DNA from: Rhizaria sp. SCN 62-66
Taxonomy: Eukaryota
NCBI GenBank assembly: GCA_001724265.1
Contig: MEDY01000258.1
Coordinates: 1-44,023, forward strand
Length of the DNA: 44,023 nt
Direction of reading: 5' to 3'
Made by a program: the position numbers and the translations under genes. Positions 2,316 to 32,165 of the stretch are shown piece by piece. Position 1 is the stretch's first letter. Each line of letters starts with the position of its first letter. Under the pieces are notes generated by a model. That model made no database searches and was not told the origin of the DNA. It worked only from the letters and a program-made list of their open reading frames with translations.

Positions 2316-5300
2316 TCAGACCTGCGTTGCGGCGGCAAGCTGCAGGGCCCAGTGCAGCGTCCACGCCGCAAGCACCTGGTCGGCCGACTCCGGTACCGCT
2401 GGAATGCCCTGGATCGTCAGCTGGCGCAGGCGGCGGTGGGCGTGGCGGTGCGCGCGCGTGAGGGCCTGCAGAGCGCGCTTATCGGCCTTGACCTCAGCCT
2501 CAGTCTCAGCCTCAGCCTCAGCATCGGCGTCCGCGTCAGCGTCGGCATCGGCAGCCGGGTCAGGCGTAGGCTTGCTCTCGGCAGCCTTGGCTTTTGACCG
2601 GGTGATGAGCTTACTCGGAGTCTTTTTCGTCTCCGGTTTGGCGTTACTAGCGCCCTTCTCGCCCTCATCGTCATCGTCGTCATCGTCGTCGTCGTCGTCG
2701 TCACTGTCGCTGGCACCGTCGCTAGTAGAGTGCGTGCGCGCCTTAAGCCCAAACAGCGCATTGACCATCCCGCCCCCGACGACAACATCAACACCTGCAG
2801 CCACAGTCGCGTTGCTGTTGTTCGCCGCAGCATTGCTCTCCGCAGCACTTGCAGCGGCAGCAGCGGCAGCGACAGTGGCCGTGGCAGCGGTGTGGCAGAC
2901 CGGCAGCGGGTCCGGGACCAGCCGCGCCCAATGCGTTAGTGCCAGCATGATCCTGAAGATCACGCCCACGCGCGCGTGCGCGGCCGCCAGCGAGGCCTCC
3001 GCAGTTGCCGCGGCGGTGATGCACGCCGCCGCCACGGCCTCGGCCACGGCGACAGCGCTCGACACCGCAGCGCCGCCGACAGTGGCACTTATACTCGAGG
3101 AACTTACACTCGCCGTCGCGTTGTTAGCACGCGCAGAGTTCAAAGTGGCGCCTGTGCTGCTGTGCTTTTGCTGTTGTTGCAGAACGATGTTTCTCCGCGC
3201 AGCGCGCAGCCGGCGGCTCGCGCGGCGGGCGTCCGCGGCCGCGCGCGTTGCGGCCGTGGTCGTGCGCAACAGAGCCTCGATGCGCAGCCGCACCCACCGC
3301 AGCTGCGCGGGCTCACTCAGAGACTGCGCATCGAGCTTCGACTGCAGACCTGACTGTTGCAACTGTGAGTGAGAGCAGGAGCATGGGTGCGTTGTCGAAC
3401 CCGCGGCAATGTTGTTGTTGCTCTGGACAATCGCGATGTTTTTGCTCACGCACGCGCGCGCAGTGGTCGCTGGCAGACTGTGCTGCGCCGCTGCGAAGGC
3501 CAGCGCTGACCGAGGCAGCGACAGCGACGAGCCCAGGGCACCTGTGGTGGCGTCGGCGGCGGAGCGGAGCGACCGGGAGAGGGCGCAGCCAGAGACGCGG
3601 GCAGGCAGCCACGACGGCGCCAGCAACATGCACGGCTGCTGACTCTGCTGCGCTTGCTCTTGCTGGTGCTGCTGTAACTGGGACTGAGGTTGAGGGATGT
3701 AGGTGGGGTAGGATAAGTATGAGTGCACGGGGACGAGTGACGCGTCATCACGGGTTCCTTTGTTGTAAGTGCTGCTGACACTCGCGATGGCAGACAACGT
3801 GGCAGAAGCGGTGTCGAGCAACGGGTGGTATTGGCTGTAGCTAAGCAGCTCTAAGCTCTGCTGTTGCTGCTGCTTTTGTTCGTGCTCCTGTTCCTGCTGT
3901 GAGACCACGGCGACTAGCTTTTGCGTTTGCCTGTTGGTGGCGCTCACTGCAGCCGCTAGTTCATGTGCAGGTAGCCAGTTCACAGTCTCCCACTCGATCT
4001 CGCCGCTAAGGGGGTACTTAGAGCCGCCCTTAGCCCGACAGCAAGCAGCACAATACTGACTCACCGCCGCGCCACTTGTGCCCGGCGACCTCGGAGTCGG
4101 AGAACTGAGAGCGGCGCTCGAGCTCGTCTTCGAGTTGGCGCCGGCGTGACTGCCGCTATGGGACGATGACGAGGGCGGAGGCGAGGGGAAGAGGATGGCG
4201 AACAGACGCGCGAGCGGGCTCACAGTGCCCCAGGCTTCGGGACTGTCCACCACGAGCTGCGCAACGCTGCACGGCGGCACCCACCAGGGACGCACGGTCA
4301 CGCGTTCCGCGTCTAAGGCGGTACTTACACCAGGGCACGCGTGCAGGGCCGACAGCGCGGCGCTCGCGGCGGTGACCGCGCGGTGCGCGGCGGCCGCGGC
4401 GGCGGCGGCCAGCGCGGCGGCGGCCGGGAACGGGCGCGCCGCGCTGGCGACGGCGGCGCTGAAGCTAAGTACTACGTCCTTGGACGGAGGCTGCTGGCAA
4501 GCGCCGAGGCGGCCTACGTTCATGAGCGCTGGAGCGGGGTACATAGACAAGGATTGGTAAGGGTGCCGGGCACTTAGATTCCCGTTGTAAGTACCGAGCA
4601 TGTAAGTGCCCTGTGCGTCGACGGAGTAAGTGCCCGCCTTGCAGCGCAGCGGCGGCGGGTAAGGGTAGCTGTAAGGGGCTAGCGAGCGGTGGAACGACGC
4701 GTGCAGGGGCACTAAGGGGGTCTCAAGCGTGTCTAAGTAGTCGCAGCAAAGGGAAAGTAAGTAAACAGAGCCCCTTAAACGCGGGCGCACGGACACTGTA
4801 AGCACCGCTGTCGGCACACTTACATCGACGCTACTCGCACTCGCATTGAAAGCTGCACCAAGACTGTTCTTGTTGCTGCTGCTGTTGTTGTTGTTGTTGT
4901 TGTTGCTGTTGCTGTTGACGCTAATGCGACGCTTAGTGTTCGAATTAGCGCTGCCAGCATAGGCACTCGCAGTTCCAGTCGCAACTGCATCACTGGCCTC
5001 ATGGTTGTCGCCACCGGCTTCATCGTCCTCGTCGTCCTCGTCACCATCGTTGTCGTCGTTGTCGTCGTTTTCAGAGTCGTCAACGCTACCATTGCTGGCA
5101 TAGTCACTCATGCTAGTGTTGCTTGCATTGTTGGCAGTCGAGCCAGAGCCGGTGGCAACGACAACGATACGGCGGCCGCGGTGGTTCACGCTCGCGTGTT
5201 TAGCGTTCGCCTCTGTGCTCGAAGCGTTATTACTTACCACGACAGCGTTCTTCGCCTTACCAGGACTGCTGCTGCTGCTGTTGTTGTTCGCGTAAGCATT

Positions 5301-7474
5301 CTTGAGCAGAGCCATTGCGCCTGAAATCCCCTTAGACTTCGACTTCCCACCCTTAGACGGCTGTCCACCCTTAGACTTAGCCCCCTTAGACTGGCCGCCC
5401 CTAGACCCAGCGCCCTTATGGCGCCCGCCCTTAGACGACCCGCCCTTGCTTGCGCCGCCCGCAAGACGCTGCTCCCCGTCTAAGTGGGTACTTAGACTCT
5501 CTAAGGAGTCGCACGCCGCGGCGCACGCAGCAAGCGCTGTAATAAGAGACGCACTCTGCGTGCGCGTTGCTGTGACCACAGCGGGCTCCGTCGCGACTGT
5601 GTACGCAACAGCAATGACGCTGTTAGCTGCCTTGCTCGGCGCAGCGACGGAAGAGTTGCTATCGGCGGAGTCGATCAACGTATTGTTGGTGGTCGTGGCG
5701 GCCGGAGCGTCGCTGTCGCTGTTGAGGCTCGCGCGGGCGGCAAGAGGCGTGATCGCGGCAACAACAGAGTCGCTAACAGTGTTTGCGATGCTGTTATTCG
5801 TGTTGCTACTGTTGGCACTCGTACTTATACTGACGCGAGGGCTTTGCGCAACGCTACCCGCGGCCGCGCGGGCACTCGCACTAGCACTCGCACTAGAGCT
5901 GGAGCTCGCAAAGGCAGCTTGAGTCGCGTGGCCACTGGGGCCGGCGGCGCCAGGCCGGCCGGACCGCGAAAGCTGCGACTGCGGCCGCGGCAGTGACGGC
6001 GGCTGCGGCTGCAACAACGCCGGCGTCTGGGTCGGCGTCGGCGTCTGCTGCTGTGGCAACGAGGGCGACGGCGACTGCGACGGCTGCTGAGGGGAAGGCG
6101 ACGGCGGCTGCAAAGGCGGCGGTGGCGGCGGCAGCGGGCGTGGGCGTAAAGCCTCAGCGTCAGCATCAGCGTCAGCATCGGTAGCGGTAACATTCGTAGG
6201 GCTGCTCTGTTGCTGTTGCTGCTGTTGCGGGAGTGCCAGAGCCAGGTCCTTGAGAGGCGTGCTACTTACAGTGGCAATTGGGGCACTTACACTGACAGTC
6301 TCGAACGTACCCGCGTTGCTACTGCGATTACTGTTGCTGTTGTTGTTGTTGCTGTTCGTGAGCAAAGTTGGCGTTTGCGAGTGTGAGCGCGTTAGCAGCA
6401 GCTTCTGAGACTGCTGTTGCTGCTGCAACTGCTGCTGCTGCGCCCGGGTCTGGGCTTGCTGCCGTGACGACGCCTGCGTCTGCGCCTGGGGCTGCATAAG
6501 CAGAGGTCGAGTCGGCGACGGCGACCGCGACAGCGGCTGCTGCCCCGGCGACTGGGACCGCGACCTCTCCGGCGACGGAGACCGCGACCGCGAGTGCAAA
6601 CGCGGCTGCTGCAGCAACGAGAGCGACGGCGACGGCGACGGCGACGGCAGCGGCGACTGCGAGTCCGAGCCAGCGTCGACGTATTGACCGTGAACAGGAA
6701 CATTTCCAGTGCCAGAGCCAGCGCCAGCGCCGGTGCCGTTGAGCGAGCGGCTCTGGCTGCGGCTGTGGTGGCTGCTGCTGTGGCTGCTGTAGCGGCGACC
6801 GTGGCCGGGACTGTGGCCGTGGCGGCTGTTATGGGTGGCGGTGTTGTAGACGTAGCTATCACTCGCCTCACCATCATCATCATCATCATCGTTGTCGTCG
6901 TTGTCGTCATCATTGCCGTCATTCTTGTTTTCAACGACTTCGTCTAAGTGCCACTTAGACTCGTCTAAGGGCGCTTGGGCGTAGTCTAAGTGCAACCGCG
7001 GCCACCACAGCTTGCGGCAGCCACTGCGACTGCTGCGGGTGTTTGATACACTTGTAAGCAGCTCGGATGTAAGTACCTCACGATGTGTAAGTACCCCGAC
7101 TACAACCATCTCACCACCACTATGATTAAACCCAGAACTAGAGATCAAGCCAGAGCCAGAGCCAGAGCTGTTGTTGCTGTTGTTGTTGTTGTTGTTGTTG
7201 ATAGCAGCGGCGGCAGAGACAGCAGCCCAGTCGCCGGCGTCAGCCCTGCCCCTTAGATAGACTAAGTAGGCCTCGGACGCCAGACCCCAGGCCACGGTCC
7301 TTGGAGCACTTACACCAGAGGCTGGGGTACTTAGACTGCCGCTGATACCAGATGCTGAAGTCACACGGCCGTTGCTGTTGTTATGGACGGCACCCTTGAC
7401 AGTGAAAGCAGTGTTATAACTCCGAGTGCTCGTAGTAGCAGCGCCAGTGGTTGTGCTAGTGTTAGCATTGCTAT

Positions 7475-7508
<34 letters not shown>

Positions 7509-10105
7509 AGGTTTGTTGGGTATTGGTGTCGGTAAGATCCGCGCACCAGCCGCGGACCACACGCGCGCCCCACTTACATTGTAAGGGGCACTTAGAGCCC
7601 CGGCCGTGCTGGTGCGCACGCGCGGCTTCTGGACTCCGCGCGCCGCCGCGGCAGCAACAGCGGCGACGGCGGCAGCGGCACCGCTGGCAACCAAGGCGCC
7701 ATTAACGTTTACATTCACATTCGCACTGCTGCTGTTGTTGTTGTTAGTGTTCACATTGGCACTGCTGTCTGCAACAGAGCCAGCGCCAGCGCCGGAGCCG
7801 GGGCGGCCTGTCATGCTGTTGCGAGCACTGCTGCTGCTCGCGTAATTGTTATACGTCGCGGAACCCGTGGGTCGCGTGTAAGTGTAAGTGCCGGCGTTGT
7901 AAGTGTACGCGCCCGCGTTCGCAGATGTTTGCAACGACGGCAACAGGGAACACTGCGCCTGCGGCTGCTGAGGTTGCTGCTGCTGCGGAAGCTGAGCCTG
8001 ATTCGACTGGGCATTGCTATGGCTGATGGAAAGAGTCGGCGGCTTGAGAATCAGCACAGCACGGTTGCTGCCTGCGGCACTTCCATGCGCATCTAAGTAT
8101 CCCGGCTCTAAGGGTGATCGTGTGAGTGTCTGCGCAAGAGCCAACGAGGCCAAAGACGTCACTGCAACAACGCACGTACTGACATCACGGATACTTACAG
8201 TATTGCGCTTCGTCCGGCGATTAGAGCTACTGGAACTCTTATTGTTAGTCGCAGTCGTGGCGGCGGCTACAGTAGTCGTTGTCGTTGTTGTTGATAGTGT
8301 TGGTGCTGCTGAAGTTGTGGTTGTGACACGAGCGGGGGTGGCAGATAAGTTAAGCCGCTTCGGCTTAATAGGACTTTGAATACCGCTAGCAGTCGCAGTA
8401 TGAGCAGCGTTAGCAGCACTGTTGTTAGAGTCCGCGCTCGCATCAGCCCCGGCACTGCCGACGCGAGGCTGCTGCTGACTGCGACTGTAACTCTGACTGT
8501 GACTCTGACTGTGAGCGCGTCGATGACCGCCGTGGCCGTGAGGGCTAGAAGCGCCGTTCGCACTCGCAGTGGCCGCCGCTGCCGCAACGGTCACCGCTGT
8601 TGTCAGCGCAGCGGTGGCGGCAGCGGTGGCGGCGGCAGTCGCAGCATCGGCGCCCGCGGTACCGCGAGCAGGCGCTGGCAGCAACCGCGGCAACAGCGAC
8701 ACAACAGAGCTCGGCAACACAGGGCTAAAATCAGTCGCAGTCTGCGCTGTACCTGTGCTTGGAGCGCGGCTCGTGAAGGGCGGTTGCCACTGCCACTGCC
8801 ACTCCAACTGCTGCTGCTGATGTGAGGATAGCGAGGCAGAGCCCGGAGCAGGGCTGTGCCGCGGGCTGGCGCTGCCCGCATCAGCGCGCGCGCCGCTTGC
8901 AATAGCGTGAGCGCTAGCAGTGGCGTCGGCCGGCCGGCGCACTAGCAGCACCCTGCCACTGCCGCTGCCGCTGCCAACGGCTGCGGCCGCGGCTGCAGGC
9001 GTCGCTGTTGGCGTCATAATCGCGGCAGGAGCGCCAGCAGTTGCGGTACCGGCGCGAGCAGTTGTCGTAGCAGTGGTTGTTGTGGCACGGACTGGTGACA
9101 CCGGAGATCTGGAGCCAGAACCAACAACAAGAACACTCGGGGCAGCAGCAGCAGTGGCAGCATTAGGAACAGCAATAGTGCTAGAACTTGGATTACTTGC
9201 ATTTGCGTTACGAGTCGACGTGTTTTCGTCGAGGGGGCCTAACTTCGGTTCCAGGCGGCCTACATTAAAGGAGGCCAGCTCAGCCTCTAAGTCATCCTCG
9301 AAACGACTACTAGTCGCAGTAGAAACACTCGTACTCTGCGTTTGCTGCTGCTTCAGCGGCGTCTGCTGTTGTTGTTGCTGTTGTTGCTTGAAGGGGGTGC
9401 GATATTGGCCAGCGGACGAAACGGCAACGCCCCCCTTAGTCACCCGGAACGCACCCTTAGACGGGGTGTACGTACCCTTAGACGGAGGCGTCTGCGGAAC
9501 AGCAGCAGTGTCGTCATCGACAGCCGCGCTGAGACTGCCACTCAAAGCAGCAGCGTTGGCGTTGTTGTTTGCTGCGGCCGCCTGTTGCGACGAGCTCATG
9601 CCGACGGCGTCATCGTCGGCAACGGGAGAGTCAACAACGACCTCTGATTTGCGGCCGTTTTCGGCAGTATTCGAGTTAGCGTTGTCAGCGTTGGCGCTGC
9701 TGTCGGTATCATTAGCGTCGCCGTCGCCGTCTTTGTTGTTGTTACTATAGTAAAACAGCGGCAACGGCGCGGCACTCGACGCGCGCAGCCTGCGCACAAG
9801 CTGCAGCTGTTGCTGCTGATGCGGGGCCTGCAACTGCTGCTGCAGCTGCGGCTGCGGCTGGGAGCGCTCGGAGACAGGAGTGGCGGTGGCGAATACGGTG
9901 ACCGTGAGCAAAGTCGTGTAGCCAGCGCCGCCCAGGGCACCCACATCCGGCTTAAGCGAGGTATTTATACTCGAGCTGCTGTTAATGTAAGGGCCGTAAG
10001 CACTTACAATGCCGCCAGTGATGAACTGCAACGCCCACAGATCGACAGTCGCCGCAGTCGCGCTAAAGTCAGGCCGCCTATCGAAGTCAGGCCGCCCATC
10101 ACTTT

Positions 10106-10143
<38 letters not shown>

Positions 10144-13100
10144 ATGGTCGCGTTGTAGTTGCGACTGCTGCTGCCGCTGCTGCTGCTGCTCGTCTTAGAG
10201 CGCTCGAAGTTAGGCCGCCCCCTGCTGCCCCAGACTGCGGCGGCGCCGGGCCCGCCGGCCGTGGCGGGTGCGGCGGCGGCGGCGGCGGTGATGGCCGCGG
10301 TGGCGGTCATGATCGCAGTGGCCTCGGCGGTGACCGTGAGCAGCTGTTGCTGAAGCTGCGACGGCGTCGCCACCGGCGGCGACGGGAACGCGGACTGAGA
10401 CTGCGATTGGGAGCTACTGCTGCTGCTGCTGGTGTTGTTGTTGCTAGTAGGAGATACAAGGAGTGACTGTGAGCTGGTGATGGTGGGGCGTTGCGGGGAA
10501 GTTAAGCCGCCTGGCGGCGAGTTCAAACTGCCTTCACGGACTAAAGTCAGGCCGCGCTTAGCACCCACAGAGCCCGAAGATAAGCCGCCCTTTGAGTTAC
10601 TGCTCATCGAAGCAGTCGTCTTGCTGCTATTGTTGTTGTTGTTGCTGCCACTCGACGCCAAAGTTAAGCCGCCCGCAAAGGCTGTGAGACGCCGGGCGAG
10701 AGCGTTCGCGGCCGCGGTGAGAGGCGCATTGAGCAGAGTGTAAGTGTGCGACTTGCCCTGCTTAAGTACTCCATTAGACTGAGTCAAGATGACCCTCTTC
10801 CGCGATGACTGCTGAGCGTTTGCACGGCCATTGCCGTTGACACTGCCGTTGCTGGTGAGCGCGTTGTAAGTGCCTTGATAGTCGGTGTAGCCGTAGCGGC
10901 TAAGCAGGGTACTTAGATCAGAGGGGAACGGCCGCGATGGCAGGCGCCATGAAGTTAAACCGCCACTCACGGAAGCACTTAGAAGTCCGGGAGTGTTAAG
11001 CCGCATCGGAGTACTTACACCGACACGCCCGCTATCACCGGTGGCCAGAGCGCTGCCGCTACTCTTCGCAGCAGTAGCAGCAGCAGCACTAGTAGCTGCC
11101 GAGGCGACTGTGAGCGCAAGGGCGGCGGACACTGCCGGGGCCGCGGCCAGCAGCGGCCTCAGCACTGCCGCCGGCGGCAGCGGCGGCAGCGGCAGCGGCA
11201 GAGGCAGCGGTGGCGACTGGCCGTGCATGGTAGCACTCGTCGCATTGCTGTTAAAAGCACTGGCACTCGCGTTGGCAGTCTCGACACGAGCGCTCGAAGC
11301 GCGGGAGTGCGCGGTGTTACTCGCGCTGTCAGCATTACGCGTAGTAGTGTAAGTACCGTTGCCAGTGTAAGTGGTGGGGACGAAGCCCTTCGTTCCGGAG
11401 GCTAGTGAGACAGCAACATCACAGCTGTCGCTGCTGTAGGCACTTACACTCGCCGCGAGCCGAGTTTTTGTAGCGCCGTGGTGACGAGAGAGATTGTTCG
11501 TGGTCTCGATGGGGGCGCTTAGATCGAATGTTAGAGCCACTCCGCCCACGCCCTCGCCGTCATCACTGATGGCAATGACGCCAGCGCTGATGGCAGCCGC
11601 CTCAGCATCCGCAGCAGCCGCCGCAGCAGCCGCAGTCGCCCCCGCAGGCACCGGCACAGGCGTAGGTACAGCAGCAGTCGAGTTACTCGCAGCAGCGCCA
11701 GCACTTGCACCCGCATTTGTACTCGCGTTTGTCGCATTAGAACTCGTGCTGTTGTTGCTATTAGCGTTGCCGTTAGTTGCGGCAGTGCTACCCATGGGTG
11801 CCCCGCCACCGGCACCGGTACCGGCGGTGCCCGGGATGACCGTGAGCAGCTGCGCCGCCAGCGCGTCGACCACGGTCACCAGCAGCTCGGGGCAGTGGCG
11901 CAAGGACCGCGAGCGGGGACCGTGGGTGACGGCGTACTGACGCGCCAGCAGCGACAGCAGGGACGCCGGCAGCGGCAGCGGCAGCGAGGCCGCCGCCGCC
12001 GTCGCTGAGGCTGCTGTGGACTGGGACTGAGGCTGCGGCTGCGAGAGTAGCTGCGATGGCGGTGGCTGTGAGCAGTCGCAGCGCTCGCAGTCGCCTTCAC
12101 TCTTGTGCTCGCAGTCAGCTGCGCTATCGGGGCTGCTGCGGCTGCTGCAGCTGCTGTGGCAAAGGCAGAGACAGAACGGGTCAGCCGCCGCCGCTGAACT
12201 CGTGCTTTGACCGCCGCCAACAGTACCATTGTTGGCAATCTTAACGCTTGCGCCGGTGTTAGAGTTGTTATTGGACTGGGGCGTGACCATGGGCAGCAGC
12301 AGCAGCACAGCCGGTGACGCCGGCGCAACAACAGCACCGACGTTGTTCGAGGCGTTGGTGTCGCTGGTGACGGGGAATGAAGCCGCCCCTTCGAGCACTA
12401 GGTCAGACACGGCACGCTGGATCTGCCTGTTAATCCCGACATTCACGCGCGCATTCATTGGAGTCGCACTCCCAGTTGCATTCGCGCTCGCAGCAGAAGC
12501 AGTGGCCCTGGCGTTGCGACTGGCACTGCGAGTGGCATTATCTCCGTTGAGATTGTCAGTGCTTGCCGATGATGTAAGGGTCTCGGCCGTCCGCCTGCTG
12601 GTGATGCCACTAAGTACCTCTTTCTCCTTGCCCTCAGCAAATGTAAGTGCGTTGCTGCCCCCACTGTTGTGATTATTGTTGTAAGTGCTCGAGAATATAA
12701 GTGGCAGCGTACCGCGGCGGGTGTTGTTAATGTAAGCCGCACTCAGACTCGGGCCCGGGGTACTGAGACCGTGGAGCTCGGAGCTACTTAGATGGAGACT
12801 GCGAGAGTTGCCAACGGGGCTATTAGCGGCGGATGAGGAAAAAGTGTGGCTATGGCCGTTCTTTTCAAGAAATGAGCCGCCATTGTTGTTGTTGTTGTTG
12901 GTACTGCTAGCGTTGCTGCTATAGTCGGAGAGAGAGGAGAAAACGGCTGAAAATCGGCGCGGGGAGGGATTGACTTTCCGCACGGGGGTGCTTAGGTCAT
13001 CGATGGGGCCCATAAGAGGGGAGAAAGTGCCAAAAGCACCCTCCTTGCCATCCTCATCGTCGTCCTCTGCATTGTCATTGGCATTGGCATCCGCAATTGC

Positions 13101-16100
13101 AGCAGCAGCAGCAGTAGCAGCAGCAGTCATAGTGTCGGTGTCAGCGTCAGCGGAAATGGCTGCGCTACGATTGCTGTCGCTGTTGCTCTTAAACTGCTGC
13201 TGTTGCTGTTGCTGTAGACGACGTGAAGGGGCCGGGCCGGGGGTAAGGGACGAACCCTGGCTAAGTGCCCCGCGCCTAAGTACCCCGTCGTCTAAGTAAC
13301 CGCCCTCCATGCCGTCTAAGTGCCCCCTCACACTGTTCTGCAGCAACGACAGCTGCGCCTTCTGCGCCTGAGCCTGCGCCTGCAACTGTGCTTGGCGAGG
13401 TTCAGAGTCGTCCAGCGGCGGCACCGGCGGCAGTGGCAGCAGAGGCACTGACGGCGTAGACTTAGCACTGTGAGTCGCCGTTGTCACGGTGTTTGTTGCT
13501 GTGCAGGCATGTGTGCTTGTGGACAGGATTGGTGGCAAGATCAGCGCCTCGGAGCTGCTGCTCGAGGCGAGCAACCCCTTAGACTGGCTAAGTACCCCCT
13601 TAGACCCGAACTCAGTGGCCGTGAGCTGCGCGTGCGACCGCGAGTGCACCAGCATATGCGGCTGCAATCGCGGCTGCGCCTGTGCCTGGGACTGAGCCTG
13701 GGACTGGGCTGCCGTTGGCGTTGAAGGGGGTAGATTGAGCGACAGTAGCCGCTGCTGCTGCTGCTGCCTCTGCTGCTGCTGCTGCTCCTGCGGCCGCTGT
13801 TGTTGTTGCTGCTGCAGCAAGATGCGTTGCGTAAGTACCTTCGGCAGTGTAAGTGACCCCCTATGAGCCCTTTGCTGACCGCTTGCACCGTCACTCACAT
13901 TTGCGCTCGCAGTGCTGCTGAAAGTATTCGTGTTGCCAAAAGGCAATCTCCGCAGCTGCTGCTGCTGTTGTTGTTGCTGCAGCTGCTAGCGTGTAAGTAG
14001 ACGGAGCTTAAGTACCTTGCTCGCGACGTTGAGTAAGGCCGCGGTCGCACCCGCCAAAACGCGAAACGCCGGCGCAACGACGCTACTACTACTGCTGCTG
14101 CTGTTGTTAGTGCTGTTATTCGCGCCGCCCGCGTGGGCGTTGCCACTGGCGCTCAGCGCGCGATTGCTCCGAGGAGCCGTGTTATTCGCGTTATGTGCGT
14201 TACTACTGCTGCTGTTGCTGCTGCTGTTGTTGGTGTTGGCGTTCGGCGAAGTACTCAGAGGTGTAAGTACCCCCTTGCCCTGACTCTGCGGCGGCAGACT
14301 GCTCGCTGCTGCAGGAGTAAGAGCACCCTTAGACGGCTGCTGCGGAGTCGTTAATGTAAGGGCCCCCTTCGACGCCACCGGCAACAAAAACCTGCCACCT
14401 TTAGAGGGAGACGCAGGAGCACTTACGCCGGAAGCCGAGGTACCTAAACCGCTCGCAGGAGCACTTAGATCCTTGGACAGCTGCCGATTCGCTTGCAACT
14501 GCAGCAAAGTGCCCCTGTTGCTGCTAGGGACCAGAGTGTTCGTGTTAGGATTCGCTGTCGTTGTTGCTGTTGTTGCTGTTGGTGCTTGTAGCGGCTGTTG
14601 CGGCAGTGGCGGCAGTTGTGTTTGCCAAAGCCTCTCTTCCTCTTCAGCAAGACTCATCACACGACGGCCCACGCTCGCACTTGCGCTGGCATCGACACTT
14701 GGACAGGCAGAGGCACCGTCAGCATTGGTCGCGCCACAGTCGCAGCTTGTCTTGCTCGAGTCTACGGTGTTATTGTCGTTGTCGTCGTTGCTACTGGACT
14801 TGCTGTTCGCGCTCAAAGTGGCTGCGTTGATGATAGCCGTCGTCGTGACCGTCTCCGCCGTATACACGTCGAGAGCTTTGGCCCAAACAGACAGCAGCAT
14901 CACCCCTGCGCCTGCGCCTGCCCCTGCACCTGTCACGGGGCCAGAGCCGGAGCCCGCCCCGCCACTGACACCCTGGCCCTGCGGTTCGGATGCGAGAACC
15001 CCTTGAGACCACGCGTCGAGCAGAGCGTCGAGATACTCCTCGAAATCGAGGCCACAGCGGTCTAAGTACCTACTTAGACTGCCGTATAGGTCTAGCTGTG
15101 GCCGTGCTGTAAGTGCCCCACCCCCGTCGCTGCCGCTGTTTGAACCCTTAGACTTGGACAGTGTAAGTACGCCCTTAGCGACGGCGGCACGCATGCCCAC
15201 GAGGCCCGCAACGCCGCCGCCCCGGAGCTGCGGTCCTGCGAAGACGGCCCTTAGACGGTCTAAGTACCCAGCAAACTCGAAGACGCAGCGCACCTGTTTG
15301 TTGGTCTGGATGCACGCCGGGCGCCGCTTGCGCACGATCTGGATCGCGGCTTGGGGCCTCAAAGCGCCTGGGCCGGCGCGCGCGTAGAGCAGCCACGCCG
15401 CGATCACCAGTCTGCGAAGCGCAAGAAATACCACAGATGATGGGATATAGTGCACAAGATAATATCTGTGAGACTTAAAACGTGACATTGAGATATAAAA
15501 TACGGTATTTCATATTGATCATTAAAATAAAGGAAATAATTAGATATTCTCATATAAATCGACGATAACAAAAAAATCCTGATTTTCTCCACAACTTTCG
15601 CATTGAGCTAAAGCAAGACTAATTACAAAAATGTGACGAATTGCATAGAGTTAAAAAAATATATGTTTGTTTTGTGTTTTTGTGAGTGATATAGCGTACC
15701 CTGTGCGGCCGTATCCCGCGTGGCAGTGGACCGCGACGGCCTCCCCGCGGCCCCGGATGTGCGTGTCCATAGTCTGCGCAGCAGCCAGCAACAGCTGTAG
15801 CGACGGCACGGCCATGTCGACCCACGCAAACGAGTACATGATCACGCCCGCGGTGTTGAGCAGCTCGGCGGGGTCGTAACTGAAGCCAGAGCCGCGCGGA
15901 TCGAGCCCGCCGCCGCACAGAGGATGCTAGCCGGGGATCTGCAGGTTGAACACAGCCGCGACGCCCTTTGCGCGCATCTGTTGCCAGATGCCATGCGTCT
16001 GGTTCAGCCGCGTGGCGGGCCGCTGCATAGCGATGATGCGAGGGGTGATCCACGTCGAGTTGAGCCCCCTTAGCGCGGATGTAAGGGGGTACCCGCGCTG

Positions 16101-16550
16101 CTGCGTCCAGTCCTCGTGCTTGCAACGCGCGCCGTTGCAGAAAACGCAGATGATTTGACCGTGAGGTACGGGCGGCGCAGCGGACCAGGCGGATCGAAGC
16201 ATCCCCTTAGAGGACTTCTTGTTCTTGCCCTTACCCTTGCCCGCACCGCCGTCAGCGTTCGTGTTGCTGTTGTTGTTGTTGTTTAAGGCGAGATAAGGGG
16301 TTGCGAAGAGGGAGTCTGAGCCAATGGACGACAATAAAACGCGTTTTTGTTGCTGGTCACTGGAGCCCGCCGCAGCCGCCGCAGCCGCCGCAGCCGCATT
16401 GCCACTGCTAGAGCCAGTGCTAGGACTGGTGACAGTGGTCGTCAGCGGCGGCAGATGGAAGCTGTTGCCGTTATTACTGTTGTTGTTGCTACTGAGTTGT
16501 GAGTCATACCAAACAAACGAGCCCTTCGCGTGATGCTGCTGTTGCTGCTG

Positions 16551-16643
<93 letters not shown>

Positions 16644-17012
16644 TTGTTGTTGCTGATGAAGCGTGAGCGGGCCATAGGGCGCAACCTTGCTCGAGCTGCT
16701 GCCAGTGCCAGTGTAAACAGCACCCACTGTGCCGCCGCCGCCGCCGCTGCCGCTGCCGCCTGGGATGCTATTGCCCGCGATGGCAGCGGCATGAGTAGCC
16801 GTTTGAGCGTGAAGTTGAGAGCTGGAGCGTAAGTATCCCGACGCAAGCGGCGCTGTGGGCAGGGCGCGCAGGCGCCCAGTGTGCGCGCTCGCAAAGCCGT
16901 TCGCGGCCGCGGCCAGGTCGCGGTCGCGGCTGCTGCCGTTGCCGCCGCCGCTGTTGGCGGAGGAAGAGGGATGAAGGGGCAAGGCGGCGACGGAGCTGGC
17001 GCCGCATCCCAT
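2316..17012 (-). CDS. PTPDC1: Giant PTPDC1-like dual-specificity protein phosphatase, join(17012..15700,15411..2316), ~4,802 aa if two in-frame TAG codons (15929-15927, 13988-13986) are read through
   Basis: Starts MGCGAS. PTPDC1-type segments: C..C.G..CKHE.W, GLNSTWITPRIIAMQRP, FNLQIPG*HPLCG...SGFSYDP, FAWVDMAVP, the catalytic loop HCHAGYGRTG (completed across the intron to LVIAAWLLY), and AIQIVRKRRPACIQTNKQ. The ORF-track pieces 15927..17132 and 15651..15845 share one frame, as do 13986..15488 and 2316..13946. Ends in TGA. Confidence 0.75.
15412..15699 (-). other. Spliceosomal intron (288 nt) in the PTPDC1-like gene
   Basis: GG|GTACGC...TTCGCAG|A, AT-rich. Splicing restores GRTG-LVIAAW. 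Confidence 0.9.
16554..16655 (-). repeat. Poly-Gln trinucleotide tract: 34 Gln codons, including 29 uninterrupted CAG
   Basis: (CTG)29 at 16554-16640 on the + strand, followed by (TTG)4 CTG. Confidence 0.95.
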
Positions 17013-17582
17013 CTTGGCGCGGGTGTGACGGGCGGAAACAACTGTGCGCCCACTTCTTATAGCCTCTTGTTGCTGGTGTGTAGTGCTAGAGTTTGCTGAA
17101 ACTCTGTTAAAGTGCTGTAGAGTGGGGAACAAAGAAGAACAAGTTCAAATTGTGTTAACAGGAGAAAGAGTGCTCTCTTCAAGCGCATACCAAGCCATAA
17201 ATGCGTTTCTAAATGATATTAAAAGCAGAATTAATACAAATATAGATATACTATCTATCCATCTTGGCTATGCTCTAGTTGACGGAAAGACCCCAGCGCT
17301 AGACACTCATAAAGTATCCCATCTCCCCGTTACTCCGACTACACAAACGGCTCGGACAAGGCAGCGATCGAGCTTGGTAACATCTCTCTTAATGTGTCCG
17401 CACCAGATCTGAGTAATCCAGAATAAGCGTCGCACATAAATAAGACATATCTTTATTTTTACCATGAGAGATCAGAAAACATCACAAAACAACCACATAA
17501 ACACGAAACATATCATAAAACTCGTGCCGTCACATAGGACGAAGCACCTCAAAGCGCGTCCCAAAGCGTTATACTTCGCTCT

Positions 17583-20266
17583 TTAACCCCAGAGTTTGAC
17601 GCTGCCGTCCCATGAGCACGACGCGAGCGCCTTGGGCGCGTTGGGGTGCCAAGCCACGTCGATGGTCACGTCATCGTGCGCGCGCACCTTCTTGACCATG
17701 CGGCCGCTGCGCCAGTCCCAGAAGAGCATTTTCCCCTCGGCGTCTCCAGCCACAAGCGTGCCTCCATCGGGCGAAAACGCCATGCCGCACGCGAAGCCGG
17801 CGGCCAGGTGGCCTGTGAAGCGGCGGCGGCGGTTCAGCTTGAGCTTGGGCTGGAGCGCAAAGAGCAAGATCTCGTTGTTCTGTGCGTTGCCGACCAAGTA
17901 CTTGCCGCTGGGGTGCACCGCGACCGTGGGCATGACGTGCAGGTCCGTCTCGAAGATCTCCTTCAGCACGACGGGGATGCCGTATTCCCACAGCAGCATC
18001 TTCTTGTCGTCGCCTGTGGTCACGAACCTGACCCCGCCCGCGCTCGCGGAAGTTAAGCCGCCCTGGAGCGCGTTGGCGTCGTCGTCGTCCAAGGGGGAGG
18101 AGTTGGGGAGGAAAGTGACGGAATCGACGGCGGCCATGTGATCCGGGTACTTCTGGGTCACGTGTCCCGCGCGCGTGTCCCACTGAAGCACGACCTTTTC
18201 GTTCATTCCCGTGAGGACCTCGCCGACACCGCTGGACCCACTACCCACGCTGCTGTTATCAAACCCACCGGTGCTCGTGGAACCCATGGTCCCCGTGCTG
18301 TTGGGGTGAAACGCCGCGCACAGTGGAGTCATGCGTTCGTGCTTGAGCCGCGACACCACGGCGCCGGTCTCGGTGTCCCAGATCTTGACCCACTTGTCGT
18401 GGCTCACAGTCATGATCGCGCGGCCGTCCGGGGAGAAGACCGCGGAGCGGACGCCCGCGCCGTGGCCGGTGTAGGAGCGCAGCACACGGGCCCGTGCGGC
18501 GCCGGTGGCGGCACCGTGGGGGCCCAGGCCCTCCCAGTTGTAGCCGGCGCTTGCGCTCGCGCTCGCACTGACATTGTTGTTCTGGTTCGTGGGGGAGGAG
18601 AGGACGCGGTTGGTGGCGTTGCGGCGCAAAGCGACCGCGTCAGAGCCGTCATCGTCGCCAGCGTTGTCGTCGTCGTTGTCACCGTTCCCGTTACGCGGCT
18701 TCTCACTCTCACGGCCACGGCCGGTGTCGGTGGTGTCCGTCCTGTTGCTGCAGCCCGCGTCAGCGCCGGCTTCGCCGGGGGTAGGGGCGGTGAAGGCGGG
18801 CGCGGAGAAGGACGACTGGGCGTAGGCGTTGATGGCCGTGTTGGTCGTCGCATACGCACTGCCGCCGCCGACAGAGGTATTGCTATGGTGACTCGCGGAA
18901 CGCATGCCGGTACCCGTGGCAGAGAAGGGCGACGCGGCGGCGTCCCACACCCGCACCGTGCCGTCGAGGGAGCTGCTGAGCAACAGGTGGCCGGTGCCGG
19001 GGAAGTAAGACACGGAGCTCACGCCCTTCGCAGACCCAGCGCCCGCGCCAGCGCCTGACCGGGAGCGAGAGCTCGAGCTCGAGCTTGAGCTCGAGCTTGA
19101 GCTGCTGCTGTAGGGGGTAGAGCGGAGGGTGTTGATGAGCTTGGTGGGGAGACTGCAGGAGAGCTCGGGACCCAGAAACTATTGAAAACATAGCGCAAAA
19201 GAAGACCACAAAAAAATAAGTGAACAGAGAGTGTGAGTGTGTGAGTATGAAAGCTGAAAAGCAAGTTTGTAAAAACAAATTCGTTGAGTTTGCAAATTAC
19301 CTTGAATCCAGCAGGGATGTCGACGAAGGAACGCCCGCGGAAGTCCCTCTCGACGCTGCCGAAAAACCGCGTGCTCTCGAGCGCAACCTCGGCCGCCATG
19401 ACTGCCGCCGCGGCCTCTGCCTCCGCCTCAGCGGCCTCCGCCTCGGCGGCCTCGGCGTCTGCAGACTGACCTGTGGGGATGCGGCCGGCCTTGCGCGCGG
19501 CGGCCGCCTTGAGCTTGAGCTTCTGCGCGTGCGCGGCGGCGTTGGCCTGCTGCTGCTCCGAGAGAGGGGCCACGGCGGCGGCGGCGGCGGCGGCGGCCTC
19601 GCCCTTGAAGGCCGCCCAGGGTCCCCTGTAGCCGTCTAGGTCGGCGGCGTCGGCGGACGACTCCTCGCGCGCGCGCCGAGCCCTGCTACTCACTGGCGCG
19701 CCTCCAACCGCAGCAGCAGCAGCAGGGCCAGTGGCGCTGGCGGCGGCGGCGGTGGAGTTGTTGCGTGAAGCGTTGTAGTTGACGTTGAAGTTGTCCGCGT
19801 GCGCGGGGATGTAAACGCGGTTGACCTGACCGTGGGCCGAGGCACGCAGGCGGGACTGCACCGCGCCGGCGCCCACGGCGGTACCTGTGAGCGACAACGC
19901 CGCGTACGACCCGCCGGAGACGGCGGCGGCAGACTGATGCGCCGTCAGGGCAGTTGAAGCGTTGCTAGGGACAACGATAGAGTGAGTGTTTGCGCTGTGA
20001 GTGTGGGAGTTAGCAGTGTTTGACTGGAGGCGAGAGGGGTCAATGCGGGGTGCGGCGGAAAACATTGCGCGGGACGGTAGCGCGAACTCGTCGCCATCAT
20101 TGTCGTCGTTGTCACTGCTGCTGCTGCTGTCGCTGCCGTCGTCGTTGTCGTCGTCGGAGTCCGTCGTGACGGGCTTGGTGCTGCTGGTGGCGGTGCTGGG
20201 CTCGAAGTCGCTGCCGCTGCTGTCATTGTCGCTGTCGGAGGCGTAGGCGGCAAAAAGAGACGCCAT
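17583..20266 (-). CDS. PRP17: Pre-mRNA splicing factor PRP17/CDC40 (WD40), join(20266..19301,19178..17583), ~853 aa
   Basis: Motifs GY.GPWA.F, RDFRGRSFV, C.LP.KLI, KGVS...FP.TGHLLLS.SLDG.V.VWD, multiple WD repeats, FTGH.AAGFAC...FSPDG and terminal SCSWDGSVKLWG. Ends in TAA. Confidence 0.9.
19179..19300 (-). other. Spliceosomal intron (122 nt) in PRP17
   Basis: AAG|GTAATT...TTTCAATAG|TTT. Splicing joins ORF 19019..20290 to the frame of 17583..19022. Confidence 0.85.
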
Positions 20267-20846
20267 CGCGGAGGTGGGAGGGCGCTGCACGCGGTGGTGG
20301 AGCGAAGGGACGGGTGGGCTCTGGCAGAGAGAGCGGGGGTGGGTCTGGGGAGAACGCTGGTTGTGGTGGGAGGTCCGGGGAAGAAGCTGTGGGGGAAGGA
20401 ATAAAAGGAGAGGTTGGAGTTAGTGAAATATGGTATAATTGAAATGGCAAACAGTATACAAGTGCAACTATCTATATTCGCTGACAGATGTGTTATCAAC
20501 GACGTCGACTATGCGCTGTGTAGAGTCAAACTTGATGTTGCTAATCAACCGCCCTCTTTGACTCTGTGGCTGGCCAGCCGTGGGCTGGTGGCGGCTGGTA
20601 AGGGACTAGGCTGAGTTCGAGAGTGCGTCACGGAGAGGGCTTCTGCAGATGGCAATTGTGATCGTCAAGCTCGCTTTTCCTTTGGGTTCTGTAATATACT
20701 AGCAAGGTTCTCTTGATTTTTTAATTCTGTTCTTCTCCACTCTGCGCTCCTCCTTCTCTACCACCTACCCTTTTACCCACCTCACCTCCCGCCCTGATGT
20801 CGCCGCTCTACTCCCTTCCTCCACCCAGTCGTATCCCACTGCGCCG
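20267..20846. promoter_or_regulatory. Divergent (head-to-head) intergenic region between PRP17 and EFG1
   Basis: 580 bp separate the two start codons. Pyrimidine-rich leaders precede each ATG on its own strand. No specific element was identified. Confidence 0.4.
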
Positions 20847-22366
20847 ATGAGCAGCCGCGGCAAGACGAGCATTGTCCGCGAGCAGAACCCGACCCGCCAG
20901 CCGCGCGGCCTGGGCGTGTCCAAGATCCGCAGCGCCATTCGCGACGCCGAGCGCTTCCTCAACAAGAAGGTACGGCGCCGAACTAACATAGCGCAGCACA
21001 AATCACAACAAACGTTACAAACGTTACACGTATATATCCCCAATGTGATTGCCCCTTTTGCTTGTTTGCAAATTAGAATTTCTGCCAAGCACTCCCATCT
21101 CACCGATATCCCTCCTTTTTTGTCTCCTTATTACTCCATCACTCCCATCGCTTTCTTTTGCGAACTTGAACACTCCACACACACACAAACGCAACCCCCC
21201 AGCGCTCGACACTCCCCGCCGAGGTTCTCGCCCGCAAGGAGGCCGACCTGGCCCGCCTGCGCGCGCAGATGGCCGACATCGAGCTCGCCGGCAAGGCCCG
21301 CTACTACGAGAAGAAGTACCACAAGATCAAGTTCTTCGACACCAAGTCGGTCACGCGCCGCCTCACGGCCGTGCGCAAGGCGCTGGCAGCGCTGGTGATC
21401 GCGCCCGACTCGCCGCCCGCGCGCGCGGAGCTCAAGCTGCGGCACGAGCAGACCGACCTGGAGGAGCGGCTGTTGTACGTCAAGCACTACCCTGCCGCGC
21501 GCAAGTACCTCAGCGTGTGGCGCGAGCTCGCCGACGTGCGCTCTCGCGAGGCGCGCGCGCGGACGCTGAGCGAAGTGCTTGAGAAGCAGGGCTGGCGGCG
21601 GCCCGTGCAGCGCATGGTCGGCGCGGGCCGCAACGCCGAGTTTGAGTACGTGCGCAAGTTCACCGCTTCGAAGCCCAAGAAGGCGAAGAAGGCCAAGAGC
21701 GGCGACGGCAGCGACGAAGACGACAGCAGCAGCGAGGAGGAGTCCGAGGCCGAGTCCGAGGCTGAGGCCGACAAGAGCGAGTCCGAGTCTGAGGACGAGG
21801 AGGAAGAATACAGTAAGGAGGAAGTGAAGCAGTGGCGCAAGGACGAGAAGGCACGCATTGCCGAGGCTGAGGCTGCCGAGGCGGCGGCAGCGGCGGCGGC
21901 GACGTCTGTCGATGTCGGCTCCCTCAACCTCATTAAGTCTACCTCCAGCGCCGCTGCTGATGGCACCGGCAAGCACAGCAAGAGCGGCAAGCCCACGGGT
22001 GTCACGAGTTCCGGCGTCACGAGCACTGGCGTCAAGCGTGCCAGCGCTGGCGCCCAGGACGGCGGTAGTGACCGTGAGGACGAGGACTACAAGGGAATGG
22101 GTAGCATTGCCAGTGCCAGCGCCAGTGTCAAGCGCGCACGTCCCGCCCCCTCCGCCTCCGCTGCCGCCGCCTCCGCCGCCGCCGCCGCCGCCGCCGCCGT
22201 CTCTGACAAGAAGGACAAGAAAGAGAAGAAGGACAAGAAGGACAAGAAGAAGGCTACCGCAGGCATCTACCACGGCGACAGCGACGGCGACGATGACGGT
22301 GCTGCGGCGGCCTCTAAGGGGGCGGAGGAGGAGTTTGACCCTTTCCTCAACGAGGTTAGCGACTGA
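20847..22366 (+). CDS. EFG1: rRNA-processing protein EFG1-like, join(20847..20969,21203..22366), ~428 aa
   Basis: GVSKIRSAIRDAERFLNKK|RSTLPAEV, KKYHKIKFFD.K...RRL and LLYVKHYP...KYLS are Efg1-family motifs, followed by an acidic/lysine-rich tail. Ends in TGA. Confidence 0.85.
20970..21202 (+). other. Spliceosomal intron (233 nt) in EFG1
   Basis: AAG|GTACGG...CCCCCCAG|CGC. A phase-0 join keeps frame with ORF 21269..22366. Confidence 0.85.
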
Positions 22367-23159: not shown

Positions 23160-23231
23160 TGTACTAGCCGGGGTTTGAACCCGGGGCCTTTCCGTTGCGA
23201 ACGGAACACTCTACCACTGAGCCACTAGCAC
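23160..23231 (-). tRNA. tRNA-Ala(CGC)
   Basis: Cloverleaf GTGCTAG-TG-GCTC-AGTGGTA-GAGT-G-TTCCG-TTCGCAA-CGGAA-AGGCC-CCGGG-TTCAAAC-CCCGG-CTAGTAC-A, with G3:U70, A73 and a downstream TTTT. Confidence 0.93.
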
Positions 23232-23300
23232 GGCTGCTCTTTACAAGCTTCTTGACATTTGATGGGGAAAGGGAGAGGTGCAAAAAAACAAAAAGAAGTG

Positions 23301-23373
23301 TGTAGCTTGGGGGCATTGATCCCCCTGCCCCGCGCATGCTAAGCGCATACTCTACCATCTGAGCTAAAGCCAC
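23301..23373 (-). tRNA. tRNA-Ala(AGC)
   Basis: Cloverleaf GTGGCTT-TA-GCTC-AGATGGTA-GAGT-A-TGCGC-TTAGCAT-GCGCG-GGGCA-GGGGG-ATCAATG-CCCCC-AAGCTAC-A, with G3:U70, A73, the A54-type T loop of eukaryotic tRNA-Ala, and a downstream oligo-T Pol III terminator. Confidence 0.93.
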
Positions 23374-23771: not shown

Positions 23772-26700
23772 TCACTGCTTAGTACCGGCGTTTGTGCCCA
23801 TAGTCGTCACTGCCGCAGGCTTGACAACGCGGAACATAGAGCCAAACGCTCCGGCTGCACCGAGACCAACGAGCTCAGGCTTCTGCAGCGCATTTGCAGT
23901 CGCACTCGCGGTAGTGCTCATGCTAGGCACAGCCGCAGTCGCCGCTACAGGCGCAGGCGCAGTCCGCGTGTTGACTGCTGTAACGTTCACATTGCTTGCA
24001 GTCACAGTATTTGCAGAAACAGCCGGAGCCCTTGATCCTGCAGCGGCAGAACTACTCAAGCCAGTGCTAGCGCTACTGGAGCCGGAGCCAGCACCACTTG
24101 CGCTCGAACTAAAGCTTGAGCTAGAGGGATGAGAACTGGAACTCGCGGGATTCGAGGCGGAGCCAGCGCTGCCAGGCTTCGGCCGCGCAACGATACGGCG
24201 CATCGGTGCGTGACTGCCGCCCGAACCGCCGCTTGAGGTGCTATCAAGGCCTGCAATCGTCGCTGTCGTCGTCGCAGTGCCCGCGGAGCCTGGGCCAGCC
24301 GACCCAGGCTTCACAGCGCCACTGCCACTGCTACTGCTATTGCTGTTGATGCTACTGCTATGACTGTTGTTGCTGAGACCGGCTGCGGAAGAAGCGCTGC
24401 CTGCGCGGCTCCCCATCAACACCGCCCGCGGGCCCGTCGCAGCCGCAGCCCCACTCGCACCACCACTCGCACTGCCACCGTGAACACTCGCACTCGCACT
24501 GGAGCCCGCACTCAAGACGGAGCTGCTTTGCTGTTGGCTTTGCGGTGGCTGGGCTGGGGTGGAGAGGGCGAACTTGGGGGAGCCAGTGGGCGGCGGCGCG
24601 CCCTGCGGCGGGGCAGGCTTGCGGGGCTTCATCGGCGTCGTCCCCGCAACGCCGCCCCCGGTCGCCCCGCCGGCGCCGGCAGCACTGGCACCGGCGCCGC
24701 TGAGGCTGGGACTGGGGCTGCGGTGGCTCGTGCCGCCGGTGCTCGCAGTGGAGACGGAGGGGCGTGAGCGCACGACGGCTGCAGGCGCGTTCGCGTCAGC
24801 GTTGTTGTTTGCAGTTGGGGCGCTGGCGCTGGCGTTGGCGTTCGCGCTGGGTGTAGAGAGACGGAGTCGAGCTGATGGAGCACGAGCAGCGGCAGGCGCA
24901 GCACTGGTCGCCGGAGCGCTAATCAACGCAGAATTGACTGAGGTCGCAGTCGCTGTTGCTGTTGCTGTTGCATTTGGAGCAGCGGAGTTTGATGGGCGTG
25001 CAAGAGAGACGACACGAGGCGTGGTCACGCTTCCAGGCGTGGCACTTACAGTTGCACTTAGACCACCGGGGGTACTTACATTCAAGCCAACACCGAGATG
25101 ACGCGCAGCGTTATCCAAGTCACCGTAAGCATTGCTGGTGTTATTGCTGAGAGGACTCATCACGTTGCTGCTGCGGCCGTATGCACCGTACTTGTCACTG
25201 CTCACAGTCACTCCCTTAGAGACGACCACCGCCTCAGTCTCAGCTTCAGCGTCGGCGTCATTGTCAGAAGGAGGCTCAGACTCGGGCTCAGGCTCATACA
25301 CGAGTTTAATCGTTGCACCAGTCCTCGTCGTCATCACAAAATCACTATTACCGTTATCACTGTCAATATCAGTCCTGTTTGCGTCGTTAACGCCAGCGAC
25401 AGTGCTGAGACTCATGCCCCACCCAGCGCCAACAGAACTCGTCTTGACTGCGTTTCGACCGTGACTCGCGCTGCTGCTGCTGCTGGACTTGCTTGAGCCG
25501 CGCATATTAGAAGCAGACGTTTGACCGCTTGACTCTGCAAGAGAGCCAACCAACCGCCCTCCAGCTCCGGAGCCAGTATTAGAGCTAAAGCTAGAGCTAG
25601 AGCCAGTTCCGAGAAGCTCAGCCAAGGCGGCCTCACCAGCTGCGTCATCGTCATCGTCAGAGTCATGATTCTGATACTTAGAGCCATAGTAGCCATGTTT
25701 CGCGGCGGAACTAGCTTTACCGGCGGTGGCGGCGGCGTTAATGCGCTGTTTCGCGCGCTCAGCGCGGCGTTTCGCGCCGCCAACGCCGTCGTCGCCGTCG
25801 CTTTCGCTGCTCTCTGACCCATGATATCCCGGCTTCTTGTTCGTAAGCTTCGCAGAGTTCTTACCAGCGTCACTCTTGCCGTTACCATTGTTGCTGAGGC
25901 TGGAAGGAAGGGCGCCGCCGGACATTGCGAGCACAAACGCCTCCGCAACGGGGTCACCCTTGGCTTGTTCCCACAGCCGCCGGACCTCCGCCTCCGCCTC
26001 CGTCTCCGCTTCACCTTGCTGCTGCTGCTGCTGGTTGTTCAGACGCGCGGCGGCGGCGGCGGCGGTACGCGCGCGGGCGTGCGCGGCGGTGTTCGTAATA
26101 GCGGCTTCACGGGACAGCAGTTCGGCCAGCTTGAGCAAACCAGAGTGTGGTGCAGCGAAAGCAGGGTCAGTGACTGTGGTGAGAGCGGTAACAGCGCGAG
26201 AGTTGGGGTTCGAGTTGGGGAGAGTGCGAGGAAAGGCGGCGGCCCATACTGAGCCGGCGGGGGGCTGCGGCGGCATCACTAGCCCCGCACTCACACTCTC
26301 ACCCTTAGAGCCAGTGACAGCAGAGGCAGCAGTGGCAGAGGCAGAGCTTGCGCTAATACCGGTCTTCGTACTCTTGCTTGACAGTGAAGAGCACAACGGG
26401 GCCGGCGCGAGGATAAGTCGCGAGATCAACGGCTCGACACTGCCGTTGTTACCGTAATCCCCGGTCAAATTAGCGTCCAACGCAGCCTCCGCCTCCGAGT
26501 CAGCGCCAGAGTCGTCAGATTCAGCGCCAGCGTCTGCGTCAGAGTCAGAGTGATCGATCCCCGTGCCCGCGGCCGCCGGCCCCAGCGCGGAGGCCAGCGC
26601 GCGCCGTCGCCGCCGCAGCAGCTGCTTGCGCGCGGCGCGCCTGGCCGCGGCGGCCGCGGCGGCCGCGGCGGCGGCGACGACGCGGCCAGCCCACTCGCCG

Positions 26701-32127: not shown

Positions 32128-32165
<38 letters not shown>

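Follow-up and report, generated by a model that had tools for sequence, protein, structure and literature searches.

Variant codes with UAG as a sense codon

To our knowledge, variant codes that reassign UAA or UAG nearly always reassign the two jointly. In-frame UAG codons are also passed in programmed stop-codon readthrough of the UAG-CAR-YYA type. Nuclear reassignments confined to UAG lead to Leu, Gln, or Ser, and UAG = Glu is listed only where UAA has changed too (PMC11687900). The UAG-only cases include Leu or Gln in phyllopharyngean ciliates, Gln in Protocruzia tuzeti, and Ser in Scotinosphaera (PMC11687900), together with Leu in the rhizarian exLh and Gln in Iotanema spirale (PMC5304391). 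In the peritrich (table 30) and Blastocrithidia (table 31) codes, UAG is read as Glu by a tRNA-Glu(CUA) and UAA is Glu as well; in Blastocrithidia, UGA encodes Trp, the genome is AT-biased, and UAG makes up 1.4–1.7% of codons (PMC12153298). Oligohymenophorea sp. PL0344 combines UAG = Glu with UAA = Lys and has ten tRNA(CUA) genes, its tRNA-Sup(CUA) being most like tRNA-Glu; its code was inferred by the authors to derive from UAR = Gln (PMC10553269).

The window analyzed here (44,023 nt) is an entire contig; the eukaryotic assembly to which it belongs amounts to 34.9 Mb and contains introns. We propose that this genome very probably uses a variant nuclear code in which UAG is Glu and UAA and UGA are stops, and that an in-frame TAG at 13986–13988 (hereafter the focal TAG) is a sense codon in a single phosphatase of 4,802 aa. 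The observations behind this proposal are the distribution of TAG, the homologue columns, a tRNA gene, the eRF1 sequence, and collinear domain blocks.

Comparison with the described systems revealed that (i) the proposed code shares with the UAG-only codes a sense UAG, termination at UAA and UGA, and a CUA-anticodon tRNA as the predicted reader, but differs in the amino acid, which is Glu here rather than Leu, Gln, or Ser, and in that the tRNA gene is in hand; (ii) exLh has 384 UAG codons in 71 genes (PMC5304391), compared with 7 sites in 57,418 codons here; (iii) UAG = Glu and a Glu-like tRNA(CUA) are shared with PL0344, whereas UAA, which is Lys in PL0344, is a main stop here (at 26 of the 53 gene ends), a single gene for tRNA(CUA) was identified instead of ten, and there is no pointer to a UAR = Gln stage (PMC10553269); and (iv) UAG = Glu through a tRNA-Glu(CUA) is shared with tables 30 and 31, whereas UAA and UGA are stops and the coding DNA is GC-rich here (PMC12153298). 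None of the 27 NCBI tables combines TAG = Glu with TAA = stop, and UAG = Glu with UAA and UGA as stops was not found in the literature searched, which consisted mostly of open-access main texts, and a prior mention is possible. We think it likely that this code is both real and not yet in print.

A giant phosphatase gene with two in-frame TAGs

The gene, which we take to be PTPDC1-like, is on the minus strand. Exon 1 (15700–17012) starts at the ATG at 17012 and comprises a low-complexity polyQ N-terminus, in which the N-terminal MGCGAS agrees with homologue P0002, and the phosphatase domain up to HCHAGYGRTG. The sole called intron (15412–15699; 288 nt, GTACGC...CAG, GC 0.31) is predicted from sequence, and its predicted removal yields GRTGLVIAAWLL, matching homologue P0001. 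Exon 2 (2316–15411, 13.1 kb) contains the end of the phosphatase domain, the focal TAG, and conserved blocks amid low complexity, and is terminated by the TGA at 2316–2318. The predicted product of 4,802 aa has TAG at codons 362 and 913, and its message contains 327 Gln codons. Codon 362 (15927–15929, minus strand) falls on an invariant Glu of the phosphatase domain (7/7 homologues), and codon 913 is the focal TAG.

Seven homologues of the phosphatase domain were found among 1,157 candidates, and a P0004 cluster mate from Diplonema papillatum is annotated as “putative tyrosine-protein phosphatase cdc-14.” The gene shares with PTPDC1-like phosphatases the Zn-finger-like CxFCxGxxCK lead-in, the HCHAGYGRTG active site, and the post-domain LxxQxxLxHG block, and has a C-terminal block in common with P0002; the difference lies in its length, which reaches 4,802 aa through low-complexity insertions compared with 411–1,565 aa in the homologues.

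The focal TAG (13986–13988, minus strand) is located inside CTA CTT ACA CGC TAG CAG CTG CAG CAA (LLTR*QLQQQQQQQQLRRLPFG) and links a 507-codon open frame (13986–15509) to a 3,889-codon frame (2316–13985), in which the earliest TTG, at 13946, is 13 codons past the TAG. The codon model, in which TAA, TGA, and TAG were penalized alike, yielded a single coding segment that starts at 15410 and covers both flanks of the focal TAG. The GC content at 13947–14015 is 0.54, compared with 0.31 in the intron of the gene and 0.35–0.42 in the flanking spacers. The open frames and the codon model thus agree with the original prediction, according to which a second in-frame TAG joins the phosphatase exon to an 11.6-kb ORF, and the GC content agrees with its statement that no AT-rich spacer lies between them; what the TAG means is taken from the genome-wide evidence below.

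Five blocks of P0002 (1,565 aa) are collinear with the frame past the focal TAG, the last of them being the C-terminus of both proteins; 4 of the 5 have E < 0.1, and a control of 60 composition-preserving shuffles gave one HSP. The post-phosphatase conserved block (LLSLLARQYAVTHGP...; 11853–11960, minus strand; residues 676–711 of the frame past the focal TAG) was detected with an HMM of 4 homologues at 13.8 bits, compared with 2.9 bits for the top of 200 local shuffles. In a pairwise comparison with P0003 by itself, nothing past the focal TAG reached significance (best E 0.22). From the collinear blocks and the HMM match, it follows that the 11.6-kb ORF encodes the remainder of the phosphatase protein, as had been predicted, and that the TAG must be passed. 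The CX5R active site and the post-domain block are in one polypeptide provided that both TAGs are read. An alignment by eye of the P0002 segment “LLKLRSLLANVILRTKDQ” to the residues ahead of the focal TAG was rejected, because that helix fits the stretch directly after the domain, as judged from P0001.

Among the contig pieces listed for four sequencing runs, which include the polyA run X5 and the presumed RNA run X13, none spans the focal TAG, so that its base is known from the assembly; the run contigs break at the CAG/CAA repeat, and 13946–13990 is skipped. The first TAG is matched with 0 differences by a 1,208-nt contig of run X4 (14856–16063), which was judged to be from the same species; a second, diverged X4 contig from a relative (depth 3.5) has GAG in place of the first TAG. 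A piece from the polyA run X5 (15672–15948) also spans the first TAG with 0 differences and continues into the intron; because the intron is included, the piece may be DNA and was not counted as transcript evidence.

A motif family, GGTACTTA[C/G], CTAAGGGG, and CCCCTTAG, occurs within the open frame (window 2316–17100, both strands) and is sometimes palindromic (for example, at 15061–15080). In the open frame, TACTTA and TAAGTA occur 22 and 12 times, respectively, compared with 1.9 and 2.6 times in synonymous shuffles, and TACTTA totals 35 on both strands of 2316–17100.

UAG across the genome

The sample comprised 164 loci of this assembly, partly selected for TAG content, with ~191,000 deduplicated coding codons in about 0.85 of the 34.9 Mb. 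When at least 150 open codons were required on each side, 21 internal in-frame stops were obtained, which are 18 TAG, 2 TAA, and 1 TGA. Among 60 convergent gene ends, 53 had their first stop within −240 to +60 nt of the coding end, and these first stops were TAA in 26 cases, TGA in 26, and TAG in 1. The sole TAG is followed by 16 GC-rich codons and then by TGA, so that it lies 17 codons ahead of a TGA; a clear case of termination at TAG is thus lacking in this small sample (0 of 53). All 11 TAA or TGA triplets inside the 8 fetched Pfam matches were in or at introns. TAA and TGA are therefore kept as terminators and are not sense codons, as their 26 + 26 of 53 gene ends show. Among the fetched Pfam matches with a TAG, nine had it at an intron 3′ end and two inside an intron, and these were discarded as sense sites.

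After 12 of 47 internal calls had been dropped by eye (intron ends, UTR, edges), 35 exonic TAG sites remained. A stretch of 200 kb that had not been selected for TAG has 57,418 codons and 11 internal TAG calls, of which 7 were judged to be exonic, which makes exonic TAG rarer than ATA (30) or AGA (45); with 2,056 GAG and GAA codons in the same DNA, UAG is used at about 0.3–0.4% of the frequency of Glu codons. The sequence GC-TAG-CA is common to both TAGs of the window, as had been noted from the start, but its interpretation as a leaky-termination context is not borne out by the internal TAGs genome-wide: it occurs at 2 of the 35 exonic sites, both in the PTPDC1-like gene, and the remaining contexts vary. 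C at +4 is mildly enriched (14/35 compared with 26%, p = 0.049). In this genome, UAG has the pattern of a rare sense codon and not that of a local readthrough signal.

Elsewhere in the window, a WD40 gene (17583–20419), presumably Prp17-like, Efg1 (21170–22366), an LRR gene (23772–30105), Sin3 (30822–36937), and a gene for a TIG/ephrin-repeat membrane protein (38065–44022) stop at TAA or TGA, and two tRNA-Ala genes are located at 23160–23373. In other loci, five dynein heavy chain frames of 4,500–5,200 codons are open without a stop of any kind; UAG is thus avoided in these long conserved genes.

The amino acid at UAG

The amino acid at UAG is most likely Glu, judging from conserved columns that favor Glu over Leu, Gln, and Ser. 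The eRF1 TAG column has E 106, D 10, and V 1 in 117 homologues, with Gln in none, and the phosphatase column at the first TAG has E in 7/7. A kinase with TAG at the hinge Glu has E 19 and D 3 in the corresponding column of 25 kinases of this genome, again with Gln in none, and a UBE2J-type TAG column has D 68, E 15, and Q 1 (114 of 150 matches, those with the anchor motif). The strongly conserved TAG sites are 4, a small number. The TAG column of another kinase (L071) is mixed, with E 8, A 7, and D 5 (n = 25). When TAG was replaced by E, Q, K, S, Y, L, or W, the seven residues scored, at 7 Pfam domain sites, the bits totaled 446.5 for E, 442.5 for Q, 441.9 for K, 438.3 for S, 432.3 for Y, 428.9 for L, and 427.5 for W; the deficit relative to E is only 4.0 bits for Q, 8.2 for S, and 17.6 for L. 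E was the top residue at 5 of the 7 sites and K at 2, and the PTP site was uninformative. Of the original suggestion that the focal TAG is a second instance of UAG decoding as Gln or Glu, the decoding thus stands, through a genome-wide reassignment with a cognate tRNA, and the residue is most likely Glu.

Three TAGs face Gln in paralogues, one at L100:6157 (CAG) and the other two within a repeat element of contig C681. At least 2 Gln residues lie within 3 residues of the TAG at 5 of 35 sites, more often than the 3.1% for Glu codons (p = 0.004) and less often than the 28.8% for Gln codons (p = 0.04). The simplest account of the Gln-flanked TAGs is that they are CAG-to-TAG transitions tolerated as Q-to-E changes at variable positions, and the focal TAG, which lies in a polyQ flank, was probably a CAG before its C changed to T.

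A tRNA with anticodon CUA and an altered eRF1

A pattern search for tRNA(CUA) gave 38 matches in 30 returned loci, 23 of which were passed to ARAGORN; the leftover loci, and one of the 23, were already known Ile/Leu tRNA loci. ARAGORN identified one tRNA with anticodon CUA (G000:C84:76008–76080, minus strand), a single-copy gene with a polyT tail that scores 58 bits in Rfam. It sits between eukaryotic genes and, because one of these adjoining genes is presumably formin-like, we regard it as nuclear. It is identical to tRNA-Glu(CTC) at 11/14 acceptor and 15/17 T-arm bases, compared with 2/14 and 12/17 for tRNA-Gln(CTG), and its global alignment score is 47 with tRNA-Glu(CTC) versus 31 and 25 with two tRNA-Gln. 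The “Pyl” label given by ARAGORN reflects the anticodon, and the body is nearest to tRNA-Glu. Minimum-energy folding did not give a cloverleaf (z −1.53), which was recovered by ARAGORN and Rfam. A tRNA with anticodon UUA was not among the tRNAs seen in a general search in which 63 of 506 candidates were scored. The tRNA(CUA) would thus be derived from tRNA-Glu(CUC), would pair with UAG and not with UAA, and, judging from its body, may be charged with Glu. In tRNA-Trp(CCA) on locus L108 (G000:C90:602–674 and 5031–5102), there is an A31-C39 mismatch at the foot of the anticodon stem.

One eRF1 gene and one Pelota-like gene were found. The eRF1 needs its own in-frame TAG (L031:1594–1596; G000:C63, minus strand) to be read; this TAG lies between the stop-reading motifs and recurs in a second DNA contig of identical sequence (L145, perhaps of the same source). 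It is followed by AAA, the sole AAA among the 16 Lys codons of the exon, which may be a possible feedback site or chance. Comparison with 117 homologues revealed that T32S, G57S, and K130Q are each found in 0/117 and T58K in 1/117, namely in the closest relative P0011 (84% identical), and that E55, Y125, and C127 are retained. Thr32 of eRF1 touches the third stop base, and Thr58 lines the codon pocket (PMC4605324); Paramecium eRF1 is altered at Thr58 (PMC5681627). Thr32 is altered both in Iotanema, as T32G, and here, as T32S; for Iotanema, weaker reading of UAG was proposed as the consequence of losing Thr32 (PMC5304391). The available extracts of PMC12440015 and PMC3167606 add nothing further on T58. 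From their positions around the stop-codon pocket, we infer that T32S, G57S, T58K, and K130Q weaken UAG recognition; some residual recognition is possible, because E55, Y125, and C127 are retained.

The nearest eRF1 (84%, with T58K) and the nearest HSP90 (88%) are environmental proteins, and the HSP90 of this genome clusters with nine environmental sequences in a clade of 10 rows, apart from the Euplotes and Tetradesmus rows. A metagenome scan for the eRF1 of relatives gave 79 distant loci, with KASNIKS in none among the matches listed. Ubiquitin and cytosolic HSP90 (L250 and L264) of this genome are unusually divergent.

Alternative readings of the focal TAG

A sense UAG could be read as Gln, or as a mixture of Glu and Gln, if GlnRS mischarged the tRNA(CUA) or if a near-cognate tRNA-Gln(CUG) acted in Gln-rich messages. 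The three TAGs aligned with Gln in paralogues and the enrichment of TAG sites in polyQ flanks are consistent with such decoding, and in a yeast preprint, stops within QXQ contexts and within Gln-rich mRNAs are described as sites where Gln is inserted (PMC13192750). We consider this reading improbable: Gln is found in 0/117, 0/7, 0/25, and 1/114 of the conserved columns, the body of the tRNA(CUA) is of the Glu type, the Gln-aligned TAGs are variable positions one transition away from CAG, and the focal TAG stands in R-X-Q instead of Q-X-Q. In both this yeast readthrough (PMC13192750) and programmed readthrough, as at the focal site, the in-frame UAG has CAG as its next codon and a long extension beyond it. 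The original prediction had also offered programmed readthrough. In this reading, a UAG that terminates part of the time in a GC-UAG-CA context would yield a short (~912 aa) and a giant isoform. The occurrence of GC-TAG-CA at both TAGs of the gene, the mild excess of C at +4, and the E55, Y125, and C127 kept by eRF1 could be explained in this way, but 33 of the 35 sites are without GC-TAG-CA, so that there is no common context; a cognate tRNA is present, and UAG is nearly missing from the 53 gene ends and seems to be no working terminator elsewhere. In addition, TAG occurs within the catalytic domain, in eRF1, and in the kinase hinge, and efficient UAG decoding is therefore required. We regard the two isoforms as very improbable.

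Just as improbable is the proposed 30-nt phase-0 mini-intron at 14015–13986 (minus strand), in which the TAG would be the 3′ AG end and would never be translated. The GT...AG stretch is present as a string, its AAG|GT...TAG|CAG boundaries are in frame, TAG acceptors are common in this genome (47/116 introns), and several other “in-frame” TAGs turned out to be intron ends. However, 114 of the 116 called introns are 78–674 nt long, and the donors of the two shorter calls depart from the consensus. The candidate has T at +5, where 95% of donors have G (a partly circular figure, as the scoring favored +5 G), starts with GTACTT, whereas the genome donor is GTACG, has 47% GC, and is without a T-rich tract; the 440 nt upstream are free of consensus donors. 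Exon 2 has 5 copies of AGGTACTT as part of the enriched motif, so that the GTACTT can be attributed to the exon-wide motif family, and the code explains the TAG without splicing. We therefore judge 13986–14015 to be coding. In the least probable reading, the T at 13988 reflects a misassembly or a private allele, with CAG as the true codon, or the gene is broken there. The site does border the CAG/CAA repeat at which the run contigs break, but the 3,889 codons downstream stay open and contain conserved blocks, errors would not favor TAG 18 to 3 over TAA and TGA, other TAGs recur in separate assemblies, and the genome-wide code would be unaffected. The focal TAG is most likely an ordinary sense codon, because a variant code appears to read UAG as Glu genome-wide, and the giant phosphatase would then be translated through codon 913 with Glu at this position.

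Regulation, codon usage, and annotation

It is conceivable, though we consider it unlikely, that the stop-to-sense change is incomplete and regulated, with the UAG of eRF1 acting as feedback on the eRF1 level. Residual release at this UAG (next base A) would compete with the single-copy tRNA-Glu(CUA), and UAG would be kept so rare because of this eRF1/tRNA feedback loop. If so, about a thousand genes could be tuned (roughly extrapolated to 34.9 Mb from the 7 sites in 200 kb), and the giant phosphatase could yield a minor short form. With a codon of this frequency, chance might also account for the TAG within eRF1.

Under the proposed code with UAG = Glu, how eRF1 loses UAG while UAA and UGA are kept (T32S, T58K) becomes directly testable, since a single genome provides both the eRF1 sequence and the tRNA gene. 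The GC-rich setting and the very low use of UAG fit codon capture without AT pressure, unlike in Blastocrithidia. Standard-code annotation of this genome truncates eRF1, kinases, and the giant phosphatase, and screens that require many in-frame stops may overlook codes in which the reassigned codon is as rare as UAG is here.

Additional features of the assembly

The repeat element on contig C681 (L252/L261; G000:C681:1–4727) has a lower GC content, internal repeats, and a captured ubiquitin domain, and its tail presumably resembles a peptidase-S74 chaperone; other copies of the element have Gln opposite its two TAGs. On contig C706, a divergent 18S rRNA gene (L144:1501–5945), possibly of the same organism, contains four group I intron matches, and its first insertion, inspected by eye, may encode a His-Cys box endonuclease.
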